DNA from: a virus
Taxonomy: Duplodnaviria > Heunggongvirae > Uroviricota > Caudoviricetes
Reading direction: 5' to 3' (one strand)
Virus record (IMG/VR): IMGVR_UViG_2541047433_000025
DNA length: 13,457 bases
Positions 1,454-13,457 of this stretch are shown piece by piece. The translations under genes were made by a program, and so were the position numbers. How positions within the stretch are numbered: position 1 is the first letter of the stretch; the number at the start of each line of letters is the position of its first letter. The notes beneath the pieces were generated by a model. That model was not told the DNA's origin. It saw only the letters and a list, made by a program, of their open reading frames with translations, and made no database searches.

Positions 1454-1552
1454 CGCATCACCTCTGGCAGGCGCCAATGTTAGACTTAAATTGACGCCCG
1501 ATGTTGATTATTAATAATCAGCTATGAAGTTTTAATTTGAATACAATGCAAT

Positions 1553-1741
1553 TCACGAGGACTGAAGTTTCTCGCAATTAAAATTTATCAGTTTTACTTT
1601 CTGCTCTCTGGAAACGCCTGCTTCTTTTTTACCTGAGAGCATTTTTTCGCATTCTGATTTCGTTAGTTTAGATTTTGAATATCTTGTCCAGTTAGTAGGA
1701 GTGCCACCTTCCTTTTCAATAGTGGCGGTAATTTTATACAT
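1553..1741 (-). CDS. ydaC: Small phage protein of unknown function, 62 aa from ATG at 1741 (alternative starts 1753 or 1813)
   Basis: Minus-strand ORF in the track (86 aa to the farthest start). The ATG at 1741 is preceded by GGAGGTG with about 5 nt spacing. Symbol assigned only by recalled Rac gene order between ydaQ and ralR. Confidence 0.5.
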   Translation of the reverse strand: MYKITATIEKEGGTPTNWTRYSKSKLTKSECEKMLSGKKEAGVSREQKVKLINFNCEKLQSS

Positions 1742-1778
1742 GAACACCTCCATTATTATTTCCAGTGGTTCGTTTATT

Positions 1779-1940
1779 TCATCGTTCGAGTGCTTCTTTT
1801 TCACTTCCACCATAACCGGTTCGGGATTCGCATCCGTTACACTTCGCTCGGTAATATCCTGAAATGGCTTTCACCGTTACTGATGGACAACCACAAAATG
1901 GACATGGTTTAACATTGTCATATCTCATAATTTTTCTCAT
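1779..1940 (-). CDS. ralR: Lar-type restriction-alleviation zinc-ribbon protein, 53 aa (not in the ORF track, below its length cutoff)
   Basis: Manual translation: MRKIMRYDNVKPCPFCGCPSVTVKAISGYYRAKCNGCESRTGYGGSEKEALER. Two Cys pairs (CPFCGC ... CNGC) form a zinc-ribbon pattern; an in-frame stop lies 4 codons upstream of the ATG. Directly downstream of recT as in the recE-recT-lar arrangement. No clear SD seen. Its 3' end overlaps the longest alternative start of the neighbouring ydaC-like ORF. Confidence 0.55.
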   Translation of the reverse strand: MRKIMRYDNVKPCPFCGCPSVTVKAISGYYRAKCNGCESRTGYGGSEKEALER

Positions 1941-5487: not shown

Positions 5488-5763
5488 TCAGATTTCACCT
5501 TTTAATTTCATTGCAATTAGAGTTGCCAGAAATTCGGCTTTTTTTTCTGTGGGCAGATTCTTTCCGATATGCACCAGGCACATTTTTTTGACACCTTCAT
5601 CAAGTGTTTTTACGTTGCCTGATGGACCATCGATATCAACCACAGTGAATGGGGTTTCTTTATTTTCTGTTTTAATTACGTAGCCAATGCGCTTTCCTTC
5701 CAGATTCACCTCGTGAACAATGTCATCGGTAGTTACAACAGTGGCTTCATAATTGGTAATCAT
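5488..5763 (-). CDS. racC: RacC-like small protein, 91 aa from ATG at 5763 (track ORF extends to 5811)
   Basis: ATG at 5763 is preceded by AAGGAG. Position between recE and ydaE matches Rac synteny. Function unknown. Confidence 0.8.
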   Translation of the reverse strand: MITNYEATVVTTDDIVHEVNLEGKRIGYVIKTENKETPFTVVDIDGPSGNVKTLDEGVKKMCLVHIGKNLPTEKKAEFLATLIAMKLKGEI

Positions 5764-5837
5764 GTTTTTCTCCTTAATTAAGGTTGAGCGAATACCTGCC
5801 ATTTCTGGCATAAATTCAGTTTCGAATAGTCAATTAA

Positions 5838-6008
5838 TTAAAGTTCATGTGCCATCTGGTCTTTTTCGGCACAAGCTTCACTGCAATATTTTCTCGGTTC
5901 GTCTTTTGATAAAATCCCGTGCATGAAGTGAAGCATTCTTTCAATAGCTTTGCTTTCTTCAACGTCTTTTTTGCAAAGGTGGTAAGCACATTTTATTTTC
6001 TTAGTCAT
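5838..6008 (-). CDS. ydaE: YdaE-like small cysteine/histidine-rich protein, 56 aa (not in track)
   Basis: Manual translation: [56 protein letters not shown]. Start ATG overlaps the kilR stop by 1 nt (ATGA). An alternative start 2 codons upstream (MVM...) is possible. Confidence 0.7.
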   Translation of the reverse strand: MTKKIKCAYHLCKKDVEESKAIERMLHFMHGILSKDEPRKYCSEACAEKDQMAHEL

Positions 6009-6229: not shown

Positions 6230-6670
6230 AATTATCTCCATTTTTACAAATGAACTTTGTTGATGCGGTGCCTGGTGCCTCCAGGTGACTGCAACCAGTT
6301 AACAATTACAGTCGGCTTTCCCACCCAAACCAATAAGGACTAACATGACTTTTAACTGTGCCACGTGCGCTTAGCCGCATTCACCGCATCACAAAATTCA
6401 CTTTAAAAAGGGCGGACATCAGCCGAACTTCAAGAAAAAAACTGATGCCGCCAGGACTACACACAGCAATGTCGTTATTTACAACCGGAGGCGCACTCCC
6501 ACCATTTAAATTTAACAGACAAGACCGACTCTTTATGGATATCGGAAATGCGCCTTCGTGTTGTGCCCGGTTTTATTTCACCACCTCCGGGCTTCGGTGG
6601 TCTCGGCTATACCCCTACAGCGAGAGCTTGTGTTAACATTTCAATACCCTTACAGTTGAGAGTTATTGAT

Positions 6671-7159
6671 ATGTTGGATGTATTTACTCCATTGTTGAAA
6701 CTTTTTGCTAACGAGCCACTCGAAAGACTTATGTATACGATTATCATTTTTGGTCTCACTCTCTGGCTGATACCGAAAGAGTTTACTGTCGCATTCAATG
6801 CTTATACTGAAATACCTTGGCTCTTTCAGATTATCGTTTTTGCCTTTTCTTTCGTGGTCGCCATTTCCTTCTCAAGATTGCGAGCACATATTCAAAAGCA
6901 TTATTCATTACTACCAGAGCAACGAGTATTGCTTCGTTTATCTGAGAAAGAAATCGCTGTATTTAAAGATTTCCTTAAAACAGGAAATCTTATTATCACT
7001 TCTCCTTGCCGTAACCCGGTTATGAAAAAATTAGAACGGAAGGGCATCATTCAACATCAGAGTGATAGCGCAAACTGTTCTTATTATCTCGTCACCGAAA
7101 AATACTCCCATTTTATGAAGTTATTCTGGAACAGCAGGAGTAGACGTTTTAATCGTTAG
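6671..7159 (+). CDS. sieB: SieB-like superinfection exclusion protein, 162 aa from ATG at 6671
   Basis: Track ORF is 203 aa from an upstream start; the internal start MLDVFTPLLKLF... gives 162 aa with hydrophobic segments (IIIFGLTLWLIP, LFQIIVFAFSFVVAISF) consistent with a membrane protein. Only plus-strand gene in a leftward block, as in Rac. Confidence 0.8.
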   Translation: MLDVFTPLLKLFANEPLERLMYTIIIFGLTLWLIPKEFTVAFNAYTEIPWLFQIIVFAFSFVVAISFSRLRAHIQKHYSLLPEQRVLLRLSEKEIAVFKDFLKTGNLIITSPCRNPVMKKLERKGIIQHQSDSANCSYYLVTEKYSHFMKLFWNSRSRRFNR

Positions 7160-7311
7160 CTTACTGTGTGCTTCTCCAACCATCGGCGCGCACCAGTTTC
7201 GGTTTTAAATGTTTTGCTTTTGGTATACGTCATGGCAGTGAACGTTCCATCCTGGTTGGGGAACACGCCGCACACCAGGGATTCGTTGTTGCCGAGGTCG
7301 ATTTTTTGCAT
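7156..7311 (-). CDS. ydaF: YdaF-like small protein, 51 aa (not in track)
   Basis: Manual translation: MQKIDLGNNESLVCGVFPNQDGTFTAMTYTKSKTFKTETGARRWLEKHTVS. Its 3' end overlaps the sieB 3' end by 4 nt (convergent). Symbol by synteny and length. Confidence 0.55.
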   Translation of the reverse strand: MQKIDLGNNESLVCGVFPNQDGTFTAMTYTKSKTFKTETGARRWLEKHTVS

Positions 7312-7620: not shown

Positions 7621-7680
7621 GTATATAATGTACTTTGTGTTCATCATTGTAAAGTACTTTAAGTACATTTTATGTATAAA
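7621..7680. promoter_or_regulatory. Second operator-like cluster between racR and ydaG
   Basis: AATGTACTTT (7627-7636), perfect palindrome AAAGTACTTT (7651-7660) and AAGTACATTT (7661-7670), the same GTAC-core motif as in the racR-ydaS operator. TATATAAT at 7623-7630 (plus) and TTTACA-N17-CATTAT on the minus strand. Confidence 0.4.
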
Positions 7681-7743
7681 AAAATGAGACGGGATAAAGT
7701 GAAGCACAAACCCGGAGGGGGACGCTACCGGATTTATGCTGGT

Positions 7744-8163
7744 TTAAGAGGCTTTTTGTTTTTTCTTTCGTGCTAACTCTTCGTAAATTGCATTGTACTT
7801 CTGTTTTTTCTCCTCAAGAGTTTTTAAAAGTTCATCTGTCTCACTGTCAGGGAGCTCGTCCAGAAGGTCAATGATGATTTTTTGTCTTGGATTTAACTCC
7901 TGATAGAAACGTATCTGTCCACTTTCTTCTGTATCCTCTCCCAAAAGATAGGTTGGTGTTGTTCCAATGAGTGTTGCTAATTCCCTTAATTTCTCTCGGC
8001 GAGGAATTGTTTCACCATTAAACCATTTGCTAACCGCTTTTGGTGTTAATTTCATTCGACGGGCAATTTCTGCCTGCCTTCCATGTTGTTCATAACCAGC
8101 GTTTTCACAGGCTAGCGCAAGCCTACTGGCGAACTCTTTACGCGCTTTATCTTCATGAACCAT
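7744..8163 (-). CDS. racR: Prophage repressor, XRE-family HTH (RacR-like), 139 aa
   Basis: Helix-turn-helix segment QAEIARRMKLTPKAVSKWFNGETIP. Transcribed divergently from ydaS across a short operator region. An in-frame stop 19 codons upstream prevents any N-terminal extension in this sequence. No SD upstream of the ATG. Confidence 0.85.
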   Translation of the reverse strand: MVHEDKARKEFASRLALACENAGYEQHGRQAEIARRMKLTPKAVSKWFNGETIPRREKLRELATLIGTTPTYLLGEDTEESGQIRFYQELNPRQKIIIDLLDELPDSETDELLKTLEEKKQKYNAIYEELARKKKQKAS

Positions 8164-8497: not shown

Positions 8498-8916
8498 AAA
8501 TCAAGCATGAGCACATCGAATCAGTGTTGTTAGCCCTGGCAGCCGAAAAAGGGCAGGCGTGGGTCGCTAACGCAATTACTGAAGAATATCTGCGCCAGGG
8601 GGGCGGCGAATTGCCCCTGGTACCAGGCAAGGACTGGAACAATCAGCAGAATATCTATCATCGTTGGTTGAAAGGTGAAACGAATGCGCAAAGGGAAAAA
8701 ATTCAGAAACTGATCCCTGCGGTTCTGGCAATTCTTCCTCGCGAGCTGCGTCACCGACTCTGCATCTTCGATACCCTGGAACGCCGTGCATTACTGGCGG
8801 CACAGGATGCACTGAGTACGGCAATTGATGCGCATGATGATGCAGTCCAGGCCGTTTACCGTAAAGCACATTTCAGCGGCGGCGGTTCTCCTAGCGATTC
8901 TGTCGTAGTGCATTGA
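8494..8916 (+). CDS. ydaT: YdaT-like protein, 140 aa
   Basis: Track ORF, GGGAG SD, translationally coupled to ydaS. Length and position match Rac ydaT. Confidence 0.8.
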   Translation: MKIKHEHIESVLLALAAEKGQAWVANAITEEYLRQGGGELPLVPGKDWNNQQNIYHRWLKGETNAQREKIQKLIPAVLAILPRELRHRLCIFDTLERRALLAAQDALSTAIDAHDDAVQAVYRKAHFSGGGSPSDSVVVH

Positions 8917-8993: not shown

Positions 8994-9782
8994 ATGGCTT
9001 CAAACTGGATAAAGCTCGAAGTTATTACGCCGGATAAGCCGGAAATATTCAGGCTTGCTGAGATTCTGAATATTGATCCAGATGCCGCATTAGGGAAAGT
9101 CATTCGCTTCTGGGCATGGGCGGATCAACAAATGATAGACGGTAACGCAGAGTGTAACGCTCGCGGCGTTACAAAAAGTGCAATAGATCGCATCACTTTT
9201 ATGGCTGGTTTTGCTGATGCGTTAATTCAGGTTGGATGGCTGGTCGAAACTAATGGTGTGTTGTCGCTTCCTAACTTTGAGCGCCATAACGGGAAAAGCT
9301 CTAAAAAACGGGCGGTTACAAACGAGAGAGTAACAAAAATACGAGAACTGAAACGAAAAGGTAACGCTGCCAGCGTTACAAAAACGGATCAAAAAGCGTT
9401 ACCAGAGGAAGAGAAAGAGGAAGATATAAATACTTATCTCCCCCTAAATCCCCCTCGCCAAAAACGAGCGTCTAAAAAATTCGAACCGGAGGCTATCGAG
9501 CTGCCTGACTGGTTGCCGGAAACACTCTGGCATGAGTGGGTTCAGTTCAGGCAGGCATTGCGAAAACCGATTCGAACGGAGCAGGGCGCTAACGGGGCGA
9601 TACGGGAGCTGGAAAAATTCCGCCAGCAGGGTTTTTCACCTGAGCAGGTGATTCGACACAGCATCGCCAATGAATACCAGGGCTTGTTCGCGCCGAAAGG
9701 TGTTCGGCCAGAGACGTTGCTCCGACAGATTAACACCGTCTCGTTTCCGGACAGTGCGATCCCGCCAGGCTTCAGGGGGTAA
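8994..9782 (+). CDS. ydaU: Phage replication initiation protein, lambda O-like role (YdaU-like), 262 aa
   Basis: Track ORF directly upstream of the DnaC-like gene. Contains internal palindromic repeats (see repeat features). An in-frame stop 3 codons upstream fixes the start at 8994. Confidence 0.75.
   Translation: MASNWIKLEVITPDKPEIFRLAEILNIDPDAALGKVIRFWAWADQQMIDGNAECNARGVTKSAIDRITFMAGFADALIQVGWLVETNGVLSLPNFERHNGKSSKKRAVTNERVTKIRELKRKGNAASVTKTDQKALPEEEKEEDINTYLPLNPPRQKRASKKFEPEAIELPDWLPETLWHEWVQFRQALRKPIRTEQGANGAIRELEKFRQQGFSPEQVIRHSIANEYQGLFAPKGVRPETLLRQINTVSFPDSAIPPGFRG
9154..9172. repeat. 19-bp palindrome GTAACGCTCGCGGCGTTAC, copy 2 of 3, inside ydaU
   Basis: 7-bp inverted arms GTAACGC/GCGTTAC around 5 nt; an extra half-site GTAACGC at 9142-9148. 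Confidence 0.7.
9361..9379. repeat. 19-bp palindrome GTAACGCTGCCAGCGTTAC, copy 3 of 3, inside ydaU
   Basis: 9-bp inverted arms around 1 nt; GTTAC half-sites also at 9315-9319 and 9330-9334. Confidence 0.7.
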
Positions 9783-10557: not shown

Positions 10558-11316
10558 ATGGAGACCGTTTTTGACGCACTGAAAGCGATGGGAAAAGCCA
10601 CGTCGGTAGAACTGGCTACGCGACTTGATATCAGTCGAGAAGAAGTGCTGAACGAGCTGTGGGAACTGAAAAAGGCTGGCTTCGTTGATAAAAGCGTATA
10701 CACCTGGCGCGTGGCTGATAACAACGTTCAGCAGGAACAGCCAGCGCCAGAGCTGCCGGAAGAAACCACCATGGCAACAGTAGCGAAAATCTCAGAGTGC
10801 GATTTAACCGCGACGATTGAACAACGTGGCCCACAAACGGCGGATGAGTTGGCTACATTGTTCGGTACCACATCACGCAAAGTAGCTTCAACGCTGGCAA
10901 TGGCTATCAGCAAAGGACGCCTGATTCGCGTAAACCAGAACGGTAAATTTCGTTACTGCATACCGGGCGATAATTTACCAGCAGAGCCGAAAGCAGCATC
11001 GGTAGCGGAAACTGATGGTAAGGCCTTTCCTCAGCCCACAGGTGTTGCGTTACCAGTACAGGAGGCTGCAACACAGGAAGATATTAAAACAGAAACGGTG
11101 GCGGACATTGTGCAGTCGCTGCCATCGTTTACTGAAACGCGAGCGGATGACCTGGTTTTACCATCGCTGCATATGGCAAACCGCGAACTGCGTCGGGCGA
11201 AAAATCATGTCCAGAAGTGGGAGCGAGTCTGCGCCGCGCTGCGGGAGCTGAACAAGCACCGGGATATTGTTCGACAGATTTTCGATTCCTCCAGTCGTAT
11301 TGTGTCGGAAAAGTGA
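10558..11316 (+). CDS. ydaW: YdaW-like phage protein of unknown function, 252 aa from ATG at 10558
   Basis: Track ORF (269 aa from an upstream start); ATG at 10558 is preceded by GGGAGG. Lies immediately after ydaV as in Rac. Appears full length here. Confidence 0.6.
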
Positions 11317-11331
11317 TTGCCGGAGGCACCT

Positions 11332-11754
11332 ATGGCAAAAGTATTTACACCAGAAGAGCGGGAAAAAATTAAAGGGCAGGTTGTTGAACTTGTACGTCTG
11401 AGCGGTCGCGAGACGTTACGGGCTCTGGAGGCTAAAACCGGTGCATCAAGGTATTACATAAGCACTCTCGCCAGAGAACTGGTCGCCAGTGGTGATGTTT
11501 ACAATTCAGGCTACGGATTATTCCCGTCTGAGCAGGCGCGTAAAGACTGGCAAAACGCCCGCAAAAAACTATCAAGGGCAAAGGTGAAGAAACCGGTTGT
11601 GGTTGATCCGGATCTTATCTGGTCATTACCAGACGGAGAAATACGCCGCTACGACAGGCGTCTGAACATAATCTGTAGCGAGTGCCGGAAGAGCGAAGCT
11701 ATGCAGCGTGTACTGGCTTTCTATCAGGGTAATTTTCAGAAGGTGCTGTTGTGA
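11332..11754 (+). CDS. Hypothetical phage protein, 141 aa, possible HTH-like segment
   Basis: ATG at 11332 preceded by GGAGG at 5 nt spacing (track ORF starts at an upstream TTG, 11317). Segment GRETLRALEAKTGASRYYISTLARELV resembles a DNA-binding helix pair; C-terminal CSEC pair. No family recognised. Confidence 0.6.
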   Translation: MAKVFTPEEREKIKGQVVELVRLSGRETLRALEAKTGASRYYISTLARELVASGDVYNSGYGLFPSEQARKDWQNARKKLSRAKVKKPVVVDPDLIWSLPDGEIRRYDRRLNIICSECRKSEAMQRVLAFYQGNFQKVLL

Positions 11755-11859
11755 GCCAAATTAACAATCGGAACTTCGTGAAGAGAAAGCATAATCCAAA
11801 TCTGAATAATTAAGTTCAGCACTGTAAATAAAATTTAATCCTTAACTGGAGGTATATTT

Positions 11860-12072
11860 ATGTTAAATACACAGAAAGCCATTAATGCGGAAAAATATAA
11901 CGAGTGGGCAAGAAAATTCTCTGAGCAGATTTTTAAAATTACTGGCGATGAGAATGCGGCAAAAAATGAATTAGAACCGTGGACGCCTGAAGGAGCCGAC
12001 CCAAATTATTGCTGGAGGGAGGTTGATCCAGTTGATGCTGCAAATGAAGCTATGAGTTATCACAACGATTAA
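11860..12072 (+). CDS. Hypothetical small protein, 70 aa, in an AT-rich island
   Basis: Track ORF with SD TGGAGGT about 8 nt upstream, own AT-rich upstream region, and a GC-rich GAAA-loop hairpin 10 nt after the stop. Family unknown. Confidence 0.6.
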   Translation: MLNTQKAINAEKYNEWARKFSEQIFKITGDENAAKNELEPWTPEGADPNYCWREVDPVDAANEAMSYHND

Positions 12073-12081
12073 TGTCAGGAG

Positions 12082-12099
12082 GCCGCCCGAAAGGGCGGT
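12082..12099 (+). terminator. GC-rich hairpin GCCGCCC-GAAA-GGGCGGT 10 nt after the stop of the 70-aa gene
   Basis: 6-7 bp GC stem with a GAAA tetraloop. The downstream sequence is AT-rich but has no clean T-run, so this is a possible terminator or mRNA-stabilising stem. Confidence 0.35.
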
Positions 12100-12323
12100 A
12101 ATGAATGGTCACATTATTTAGAAAAAATATCCGCGAAAGAGTAGAACAACAGAATTTCTGTTTCTCATTCTGTTTATCGTGTTGATGATACCGATATCCC
12201 CGTTAATCCTAGTCTGGATAATCGGAAAAATAATTGAGCCAGTTATTGAATTGTATAACGACGTGGTATGGGCGTCATTCAACACACTGCACAATAAAAT
12301 TAATCCGTATAAGGAAAACTGAT

Positions 12324-12587
12324 ATGGCAACTTTGACAAAAAAAGAACGGGCATGGTTGAACGAATTACAGGAAGTTCTTGATCGCTGTCCATCACCGAA
12401 AAAAATTGGCTTTTACACCATTGGCGATAAAAGCATTTACCTGTATGACCTACGCCGCATGGATGAAATCATGGAGGCTCTTGATAATCGTTCGTCGATG
12501 GATTGGTGTGTTGCTGTTCATGATATGAATGCAGGGTTTGATGAAAAGATTTTGTTCCCCTCATCAGTTGAAAGCACTGCGGGTTAA
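12324..12587 (+). CDS. Hypothetical small protein, 87 aa
   Basis: ATG at 12324 preceded by AAGGAAA (track ORF starts upstream at 12234). Stop is 10 nt before the next gene start. Family unknown. Confidence 0.55.
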   Translation: MATLTKKERAWLNELQEVLDRCPSPKKIGFYTIGDKSIYLYDLRRMDEIMEALDNRSSMDWCVAVHDMNAGFDEKILFPSSVESTAG

Positions 12588-12597
12588 GGAGTAACAC

Positions 12598-12759
12598 ATG
12601 ACCACTATTACCAAAGAACGTATTGAATTGTTCATTAAAAATCCGGTTGAAAACGGGCTTACCCGTGGTGAACAAATGGAACTGGCACGGATTGCGCTGG
12701 CATCGCTGGAAGCAGAGCCAGTTGGTGATTTTTATGAATACAAACCGGATGACTGGTAG
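12598..12759 (+). CDS. Hypothetical small protein, 53 aa (not in track)
   Basis: Manual translation: MTTITKERIELFIKNPVENGLTRGEQMELARIALASLEAEPVGDFYEYKPDDW. AAGGAG SD 7 nt upstream of the ATG. Family unknown. Confidence 0.55.
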   Translation: MTTITKERIELFIKNPVENGLTRGEQMELARIALASLEAEPVGDFYEYKPDDW

Positions 12760-12837
12760 CAGCGTTCGGCTGGAGATAAAGCGCCAAAATGGACGCCACC
12801 CTATGCCGTTTTTCCAGCGCCCGTAGTGCCGGAAGAA

Positions 12838-13083
12838 ATGGATTTGCTTACATGCCATCTCGATGGTGTAACTGAAACATATGCTGAGGGATGGAACGCT
12901 TGCCGCGCTGCCCTGCTTCAGGGCAAAGGGGAGCCCGGGAAACAAGTTCGCGAATTGACAATGCTGGTTAAACAATTGGTTAGTCAACTGAAGAAAGCGA
13001 AACCGGGCTGCAAATTGCCGGATAAAGTGATGGACTACCTGGAGCGAAGCGGACTTATAAGCGTGGAGGATGTTTCACGATGA
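12838..13083 (+). CDS. Hypothetical small protein, 81 aa from ATG at 12838 (85 aa if the GTG at 12826 is used)
   Basis: Track ORF 12826-13083. Start is ambiguous and the SD is weak (GGAAG). Stop overlaps the start of a downstream 27-codon ORF (ATGA). Confidence 0.5.
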   Translation: MDLLTCHLDGVTETYAEGWNACRAALLQGKGEPGKQVRELTMLVKQLVSQLKKAKPGCKLPDKVMDYLERSGLISVEDVSR

Positions 13084-13163: not shown

Positions 13164-13316
13164 AAACGGTTTGCGGGAAAAGGATAGTTAAGTAGAATTG
13201 CTGCGGGTGCTTGAGGCTATCTGCCTCGGGCATGAACACCAACGGCAGATAGAGAAAAGCCCCAGTTAACATTACGCGTCCTGCAAGACGCTTAACATTA
13301 ATCTGAGGCTCAATCC

Positions 13317-13373
13317 ATGCTGAACACATGTAGGTTAGCCTCTTACGTGCCGAAAGGCAAGGAGAAGCAGGCT
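13317..13373 (+). other. Mok-like in-frame upstream start and leader of the hok gene (19-codon N-terminal extension MLNTCRLASYVPKGKEKQA)
   Basis: ATG at 13317 is in frame with the hok ATG at 13374. The MLNTCR... extension resembles the Mok reading frames of chromosomal hok loci as I recall them. Confidence 0.5.
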
Positions 13374-13457
13374 ATGAAGCAGCAAAAGGCGATGTTAATC
13401 GCCCTGATCGTCATCTGTTTAACCGTCATAGTGACGGCACTGGTAACGAGGAAAGAC
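13374..13457 (+). CDS. hok: Hok/Gef-family type I toxin, 5' part only (first 28 codons; truncated by the window end)
   Basis: Manual translation MKQQKAMLIALIVICLTVIVTALVTRKD matches the conserved Hok/Gef N-terminal transmembrane region (closest to HokD/RelF as recalled). AAGGAG SD upstream. Confidence 0.8.
   Translation, partial: MKQQKAMLIALIVICLTVIVTALVTRKD

Follow-up and report, generated by a model that had tools for sequence, protein, structure and literature searches.

The question raised by this locus is whether a short AT-rich interval of a prophage constitutes an autonomous, horizontally acquired gene unit (a moron, which by the definition of Juhala et al. 2000, quoted in PMC3029335, carries its own promoter and terminator) or belongs to the operon that surrounds it. 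The interval comprises positions 11755-12323 of a stretch of 13,457 nucleotides (nt) from IMG/VR record IMGVR_UViG_2541047433_000025, hereafter the window, whose coordinates equal those of the prophage locus L001 minus 1401. A first-pass annotation had noted in this interval an open reading frame (ORF) of 70 residues with a strong Shine-Dalgarno (SD) sequence, a GC-rich hairpin with a GAAA loop about 10 nt past the stop codon and some 220 bp without a confident gene, and had interpreted them as a promoter-gene-terminator unit.

On balance, we favour a different reading, in which the interval would be a slice of a hypervariable accessory array within the early-right operon of a Rac-type lambdoid prophage (of the CP-933R/Sp10 type), and would consist of two single-gene cassettes, the intact orf70 and a dead DUF4014 gene. 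These cassettes would have neither promoter nor terminator of their own; they would be transcribed by read-through from the early promoter, as we infer from the sequence, and each would bring its own translation signals, with the hairpin acting both as part of a split ribosome-binding site (RBS) and as a recombination boundary. The descriptive conclusions (the gene identities, the pseudogene, the hairpin not being a terminator and the variable cassette array) are held jointly with high confidence, and to the reading as a whole, including the function of the hairpin, we assign a probability somewhat above even.

Gene cassettes between DUF977 and sok

The interval lies between two conserved anchors, both on the + strand. 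The left anchor is a DUF977 or Ren-like gene at 11332-11754 (annotated by the Prokaryotic Genome Annotation Pipeline, PGAP; Pfam DUF977, E = 6e-28; PHROG 142 'Ren-like exclusion protein', E = 1.5e-45), whose 3' end is found in 107 of the related loci, and the right anchor is a sok-like RNA locus at 13205-13379 (Rfam RF01794; 113.5 bits, where the gathering score is 59); sequence from 13158 on is found in 72-86 of the related loci. In 83 related loci both anchors, the 3' end of DUF977 and the sok-like region, are retained with the same orientation; the distance between them ranges from 839 to 7153 nt (1446 nt in the window), with at least 46 distinct lengths. Within this anchored set orf70 is present in 17 loci, the DUF4014 gene in 26 and the next optional cassette, orf87, in 23, all three occurring together in 12. 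The comparison of relatives proposed in the first-pass annotation consequently finds an island that is variable and not uniformly present, and the supposition of horizontally shuffled accessory DNA is borne out, additionally, by the complete E. coli genomes, 620 of which (out of 5426) carry orf70, as against 2533 (~47%) with an 'empty' version of the linker described below. The breaks in homology to the window, at 11755/11769, 11790-11855, 12075, 12105, 12320-12353, ~12620-12639 and 12722, are gene boundaries, and only some of them carry the linker.

The first cassette, orf70 (11860-12072, + strand; RefSeq WP_000935420.1), encodes an intact acidic protein of 70 residues and has the strong SD that had been described, GGAGG at 11848-11852, 7 nt before the ATG. 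The protein matches PHROG 4659 (a family with no function annotated) end to end, with E = 3e-50, and the homology search returned a real gene family of 120 homologues, at least 71% identical, which come from Escherichia/Shigella plus one E. albertii record and are all hypothetical or unnamed. Among 13 distinct alleles, the synonymous and nonsynonymous differences amount to pS = 0.215 and pN = 0.043, and the resulting pN/pS of 0.20 indicates a protein-coding gene under purifying selection. An AlphaFold2 model (predicted local distance difference test score, pLDDT, of 69) contains three helices; it has no match below E = 1 in BFVD and the PDB when searched with Foldseek, and the search against Pfam gave a noise-level match only. 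We tentatively propose a putative early accessory or host-interaction protein.

The second cassette occupies the stretch that had been taken as free of confident genes. At 12105-12322 of the + strand lies a gene of the DUF4014 family (Pfam PF13198, PHROG 1832), encoding a small single-pass membrane protein and annotated by PGAP as 'frameshifted'. The hydrophobic 45-residue frame from ATG 12185, which is present as had been reported, matches Pfam DUF4014 over positions 19-72 of 72 (E = 1.7e-17; 64 bits against a cutoff of 23.2) and is the C-terminal three quarters of this protein, ATG 12185 being an internal methionine. The frame from the ATG at 12105 ends after 26 codons, with the frameshift at codon 8, and alignment to the intact DUF4014 gene of phage ArgO145 places one missing base in the A-run at 12122-12127. 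The nearest intact alleles (loci L026, L039, L053, L098 and L118) read TTAGAAAAAAATATCC in this position, with seven adenines (A7) and an ORF of 72 residues, whereas the window has six (A6). Once repaired, the 72-residue protein matches PHROG 1832 over positions 1-72 (E = 6e-45) and has a basic N-terminus, then a single hydrophobic helix and a tail of ~30 residues; the window copy differs from the family in the frameshift. As far as sequence comparison can tell, the "gene-free" stretch is a DUF4014 gene inactivated by a 1-nt deletion in its A7 run.

Among the DUF4014 copies of the related loci, 41 of 47 are intact and the remaining 6 carry the A7-to-A6 loss, which arose in two independent events, in two different alleles (that of the window and that of L076/L112), so the homopolymer is evidently a mutational hot spot. 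The alleles in which the run is interrupted (AAAAGAA) are all intact. The sense frame has a pN/pS of 0.28 over 27 intact alleles, and a literature search on DUF4014 yielded no papers.

The 92-residue ORF on the minus strand that overlaps the hydrophobic frame exists as described (12118-12396), and is probably not a gene. It has no Pfam match, it spans the mosaic boundary at 12320-12353, and its frame has a pN/pS of 0.40, a weaker constraint than that of the DUF4014 sense frame; since, additionally, PHROG 20982 is matched only antisense to DUF4014, we rejected it as a shadow ORF of that gene. PHROG 20982 itself, a family of unknown function, seems to have been built from ORFs antisense to DUF4014 genes and is likely a shadow-ORF family of the database.

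The linker and its hairpin

The two cassettes are associated with an intergenic linker of ~100 nt, which can be written as CTGAATAATTAA-ATTYAGCACTGTAAATAAAATTTAATCCTTAACCGGAGGGATTTCTGCACCCTCAGAACATCA-GGAGGCCGCCCGAAAGGGCGG-TA and which, in most loci, has the hairpin as its 3' end. The left half, at 11790-11852 on the + strand (...CTGAATAATTAA GTTCAGCACTGTAAATAAAATTTAATCCTTAACTGGAGG), ends in TCCTTAACTGGAGG, which contains the GGAGG used as SD by orf70. The right half, at 12077-12099 on the same strand, is composed of AGGAGG (12077-12082) and the GNRA hairpin (12082-12099), and in the window it begins directly after the orf70 stop codon, orf70 being an optional cassette nested between the two GGAGG motifs of the linker. 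After the motif TCCTTAACYGGAGG, copies of the linker continue either with orf70 (~29 copies) or with the 24 nt GATTTCTGCACCCTCAGAACATCA that stand in its place in the 'empty' form (~95 copies), and in L118, L053, L026, L039 and L098 an empty linker directly precedes the same DUF4014 allele as in the window. A 9-codon mini-ORF that crosses the hairpin (MSGGRPKGR*, from an ATG at 12072, overlapping the orf70 TAA, to the TAA at 12101) was considered and rejected, because empty linkers have no ATG there; it occurs in orf70-type junctions only and is probably meaningless.

The segment 11790-11855 recurs in ~93 loci by blastn, with flanks that vary independently, and a scan of viral contigs for the linker gave at least 120 loci. 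In the complete E. coli genomes the empty form occupies 3833 places, up to 6 per genome. Upstream of the linker there are at least seven families (proteins of 118-137 residues ending in IRRATKSRTE, a 103-residue protein ending in CVWLRNKAEA, Ea22-like, methyltransferase-like, DUF977 and orf70, among others), and downstream of it at least eight unrelated ones (a 60-residue acidic protein, DUF4014, several Ea22-like proteins, and proteins of 173, 196 and 66 residues, among others). The linker joins them in many combinations, each upstream family meeting several downstream ones, and conservation stops within a few nt of the linker ends. The 25-mer containing the hairpin is single-copy in the window and occurs twice in phage ArgO145, after orf70 and, 1.1 kb away, before DUF4014. 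Because the same linker stands between many unrelated genes, it could act as a homology patch for cassette exchange; we give about even chances to its being a recombination boundary, as the reassortment of its flanks would imply.

The linker is rare in deposited phage genomes (21 records, including phage Rac, Rac-SA53, mEp460, ArgO145 and some Stx2a phages), and in a scan of one genome per species its enterobacterial matches came from E. coli, Shigella and Citrobacter braakii. Some 30 further matches in unrelated phyla were discarded, as they look like independent GC hairpins. A separate record, PP818812.1, deposited as Actinobacillus pleuropneumoniae phage vB_Apl-pPE4, contains a linker of the E. 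coli type (95.9% identity) together with DNA of the DUF4014 region, an unexpected host attribution for a sequence otherwise confined to Escherichia, Shigella and Citrobacter. A full-text literature search with the hairpin sequence returned no paper, and we found none that describes the linker; a preprint on the Pas small RNA (sRNA) concerns the late region and was set aside as not relevant.

The hairpin itself corresponds well to what had been described from the window. It spans the 18 nt from 12082 to 12099, begins 9-10 nt past the orf70 stop codon, and has a 7-bp stem (six G-C pairs and a closing G.U) with a GAAA loop, a free energy of -15.5 kcal/mol (z = -3.85 relative to shuffled sequences) and an ensemble frequency of 0.96. 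In an unbiased sample anchored on the left flank, 19 sequence types were found, with 93% of the pair cells paired. Changes in the stem are mostly from C to U on the 5' arm, which leaves U.G pairs in place in the + strand RNA; the mirror G-to-A changes on the 3' arm are rare. Searches of Rfam placed neither hairpin nor linker in a known family: at gathering thresholds the whole window gave RalA and sok alone, which lie outside the island, and over 11700-12400 at E up to 10 there were three chance-level matches only.

What distinguishes the hairpin from an intrinsic terminator is its 3' side. The G+C-rich stem is present, and the U-rich tract is absent: among 165 copies found in related phage contigs, T occurs at most three times on the + strand, and at most four times on the - strand, in the 8 nt that follow the stem, and the tail (AAUGAAUGGUC in the window) is A-rich on the + strand in every copy. 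A terminator scan did not call the hairpin, nor any other + strand terminator in 11755-12323.

The position of the hairpin relative to the following gene is consistent with a role in translation. AGGAG always lies directly 5' of the stem, and in 111 of 127 copies an ORF of at least 35 codons, from at least eight unrelated gene families, starts soon after it, with the start codon 5-10 nt past the last base of the stem (5, 6, 8 or 10 nt across gene families; counted from the GGGCGG of the 3' arm, 6, 7, 9, 10 or 11 nt, or 2 nt for an alternative upstream ATG). In the window, the distance from AGGAG(G) at 12077-12082 to the AUG at 12105 is 22-23 nt in the linear sequence, which is too long to function, and 5 nt with the hairpin folded. 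Where DUF4014 follows the hairpin, nothing but AAGAA, AATGA or AATAA separates the stem from the ATG and there is no other SD, whereas DUF4014 copies without the hairpin have a conventional AAGGAG or GGGAG at normal spacing; likewise, the 60-residue MRKFKI gene has only AGTTAA or AGTGAA between stem and start. The folded hairpin would bring AGGAG(G) to 5 nt from the AUG of the next gene, forming a split ("accommodated") RBS, a function to which we assign roughly equal odds for and against. A precedent exists in phage T4, where (Nivinskas 1999 and Malys and Nivinskas 2009, reviewed in PMC3014915) a hairpin in front of gene 38 reduces the SD-AUG distance from 22 nt to 5 nt and was shown to bring both signals into range, as also for gene 25. 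A broader proposal, that the combination of SD and hairpin is a so far undescribed portable split RBS for any downstream gene, as well as a homology patch for cassette swaps, in Rac-type and some Stx prophages, is put forward only tentatively.

Several observations weigh against these proposed roles. The loci were collected through searches for the linker, which biases frequencies among them, and the linker occurs usually once, and at most twice, per locus; the mosaic boundaries at 12320-12353, 12620-12639 and 12722 have no linker, which makes it one boundary among several and not a universal flank of the cassettes. No double-sided compensatory change was found among the 19 hairpin variants, the shuffle control was not significant, and RNAalifold on 31 linker variants gave no compensatory pair; in the absence of such covariation, the RNA structure rests on thermodynamics, position and geometry, and the wobble bias. 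In the RNAalifold structure, UCCU in the left linker (AATCCTTAAC) also pairs with AGGA of the SD next to the hairpin, a pairing that would sequester this SD. Finally, the hairpin-linked SD is not required in every case, since downstream genes of the MEITKE/MGITKE class carry their own GGAG past the hairpin.

Two other structures were noted in the linker and its surroundings. In empty linkers (e.g. L004, 3310-3375) a first hairpin, GAGGG-ATTTCTGCA-CCCTC, buries the GGAGG that orf70 uses as SD in the window; there is no covariation behind this hairpin or behind the UCCU-AGGA pairing, and an apparent compensatory change in hairpin 1 at L071 was discarded, since the alignment shows it to be either a U.U mismatch or a shift in register. 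Related loci (e.g. L004 4817-4848, L006 ~2753-2783, L011 ~9666-9696 and L026 ~8727-8757) contain another recurrent GNRA hairpin, GGCGGGGGA-GAAA-TCCCTCGCC, 1.3-2.5 kb downstream of the linker; it is absent from this prophage. Its variants, GGCGGGAGA-GTAA-TCTCCCGCC and GGCGAGGGA-GAAA-TCCCTCGCC, look compensatory, and its flanks, AGTAAGAGACC...ACCTCTGATGTG, are conserved.

Alternative explanations

With these data at hand, the interpretation of the interval as a moron can be weighed. It would require orf70 to be expressed from the repressed prophage, through a promoter in the 105-nt spacer (11755-11859) and with the GAAA hairpin as terminator, and we consider it improbable. It shares with known morons an extra gene that is present or absent between sequences otherwise conserved and contiguous in relatives, and a base composition that deviates from that of the upstream genes. 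As a mark of foreign origin, however, the composition is ambiguous. The GC content of the interval is 0.376 (spacer 0.305, orf70 0.399, DUF4014 remnant 0.353), in a window of 0.462, and it is indeed well below that of the four upstream genes (replication genes and DUF977, 0.49-0.54), as had been claimed; the claim does not extend to the other flank, where low GC continues past 12323 (0.42 in orf87, 0.44 in orf53), nor to the immunity genes, which are similarly AT-rich, and stretches of 0.34-0.39 occur elsewhere in the window (1501-1800, 5551-6000, 6601-7200 and 7651-7950). At third codon positions the GC (GC3) of orf70, 0.35, falls among the values for kilR, sieB and the cI-like and cro-like genes (0.32-0.37), and the replication genes have 0.49-0.62. 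From these comparisons, the composition does change at 11755, there is no corresponding boundary at 12323, and nothing in the composition is foreign to this prophage. As for the promoter, a relaxed scan finds in the AT-rich spacer weak 8-of-12 matches only, with poor -35 boxes, and no sigma-70-like site of at least 9 of 12 exists on the + strand in 11300-13000, although a consensus scan may miss non-canonical promoters; the totals of the promoter and terminator scans are no higher than in shuffled sequences. The spacer is, moreover, a generic linker that trails many genes even where orf70 is lacking, the same hairpin precedes genes that have no orf70 upstream, no copy of it has a U-tract, and in the window the next ATG is 5 nt away. 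With no features of promoter or terminator, the defining parts of a moron were not found; orf70 lies instead inside an early operon, with translation signals borne by the linker. An alternative of another kind concerns the DUF4014 gene, which might still be expressed, and hence not be a pseudogene, through -1 ribosomal frameshifting or transcriptional slippage on its A-run. The sequence A_AAA_AAU (12122-12128) is in phase, a -1 slip would restore the DUF4014 frame, and the A6 allele is fixed in ~240 complete genomes at least 99% identical; but any 1-nt loss from an A7 run creates such a slippery sequence, and the nearest alleles are plain in-frame A7 or AAAAGAA genes. No downstream stimulatory structure was identified, although no search was aimed at one, a run of six adenines is short for slippage during transcription, the second A7-to-A6 allele (L076, L112) is not in the slippery phase, and the presence of another fragmented gene in the same array fits decay, all of which makes expression of this gene very improbable.

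Two further explanations accept the hairpin as an RNA element and assign it another task. It could be an intercistronic element of mRNA stability or processing (a barrier to 3' exonucleases, or a 5' protective stem), its nearness to SD and AUG being incidental. This would agree with its very high stability, with its constant position between genes of a long polycistronic operon and with the downstream gene class that brings its own SD, and the wobble-preserving variants point to a function of the + strand RNA without telling which. The conserved AGGAG abutting the stem, the tight spacing of 5-8 nt from stem to AUG and the missing alternative SD of DUF4014 and the 60-residue MRKFKI gene would, nevertheless, be left unexplained, and we regard a stability role in place of the split RBS as unlikely; the two roles could also coexist. 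The other explanation is a protein-binding RNA site, such as a boxB-like target of an N-type antiterminator. Lambda boxB is a stem with a GNRA-type loop, which GCCC-GAAA-GGGC resembles. Against this, inspection by eye found no boxA-like sequence in 12040-12082, the hairpin is located over 3.5 kb past the cro-like gene, inside an array of accessory genes and far from the cro/N region where a lambda nut site would be expected to be, the element is repeated between unrelated genes, and it matches nothing in Rfam even at the relaxed threshold; we find this explanation extremely improbable. The split RBS stays as our preferred interpretation of the hairpin.

Related systems and prophage context

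The array resembles the nin, ea and exo-xis regions of lambdoid phages, in which single-gene modules of unknown function lie on the operon strand and vary among close relatives. As in other lambdoid mosaics, the exchange points are at gene boundaries, and a short conserved sequence is common to junctions of unrelated genes. The latter corresponds to the 'short conserved boundary sequence' model (Susskind and Botstein 1978; Clark et al. 2001; both cited in PMC3029335), the difference being that the boundary sequence is here a defined element of ~100 nt, with two hairpins and two SD motifs. The likeness to T4 genes 38 and 25 extends to the figures, an SD at 22-23 nt from the AUG which the hairpin reduces to 5 nt being the same as in gene 38; the linker differs in being portable and in serving many unrelated genes, where T4 has one conserved junction, in its GNRA loop, and in that its function is a prediction. 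A further parallel is offered by the promoter-early stem-loops (PeSL) of T4-type phages, stem-loop motifs that flank ORFans in hyperplastic regions, where they mediate the shuffling of modules (Arbiol et al. 2010, PMC2839356). Both are short conserved regulatory motifs with a stem-loop, associated with gene shuffling, but PeSL comprise a strong sigma-70 promoter and a functional terminator, whereas the linker shows neither and carries translation signals.

For the island as first described, little changes: its contents, a pseudogene and genes already annotated as hypothetical, belong to a well-known defective prophage of O157:H7 and show the usual behaviour of lambdoid cassettes. The linker is a modestly interesting by-product, more useful than the island itself. 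If it is truly a split RBS and a recombination boundary, it would supply the "linker" model of phage mosaicism with a concrete, testable case and would provide a natural portable RBS part, and it would caution against annotating every GC hairpin behind a small phage gene as a terminator. If the portable-RBS reading also holds, the linker, which about half of the E. coli genomes contain, would be for lambdoid phages, at the level of translation, what PeSL are for T4.

Concerning its origin, the stretch 11600-12700 is 100% identical to many complete genomes of E. coli O157:H7, O111 and related strains, and its counterpart in EDL933 (100% match; PGAP annotation) is a prophage integrated next to ttcA. 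CP-933R is rac-like and has ttcA as integration site, Sp10 being its counterpart in Sakai (PMC4632033), and on these matches the window is identified as the Rac-like prophage CP-933R at ttcA of E. coli O157:H7. The gene order in EDL933 is intR, xisR, ralR, recT, recE, kilR, sieB, repressor, cro-like, ydaT, replication genes, DUF1627 and DUF977, and all genes from the cro-like gene to 13083 lie on the + strand without a break. The Rac prophage of K-12 offers no comparison, because a deletion after ydaW has removed the region there.

Downstream of the interval, the optional cassette orf87 (12324-12587, + strand; PGAP; PHROG 1714, E = 1e-50) has a start codon that overlaps the DUF4014 stop codon (TGATATG). 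It is followed on the same strand by orf53 (12598-12759) and orf81 (12838-13083), annotated as separate hypothetical proteins, which are two pieces of one Ea22-like gene of PHROG 660: the N-terminal (Ea22-like) and the C-terminal piece, matching profile positions 3-60 and 130-192 of 193, respectively. With this split gene and the DUF4014 frameshift, the array is decaying in this prophage.

Next to the sok-like locus, RefSeq has no hok-type coding sequence in L001 14484-14916, and no Hok-like ORF was seen among those of at least 25 residues; there is a hydrophobic ORF of 27 residues, MTWPEAFTTVGIAMAVALVVYSICRWG (L001 14481-14564), which overlaps the stop codon of the preceding gene. At the opposite end of the window, the RalA antitoxin sRNA is present in full length at 1557-1735 (+ strand; RF02694, 225 bits), adjoining the ralR toxin gene as it does in the Rac prophage of K-12.

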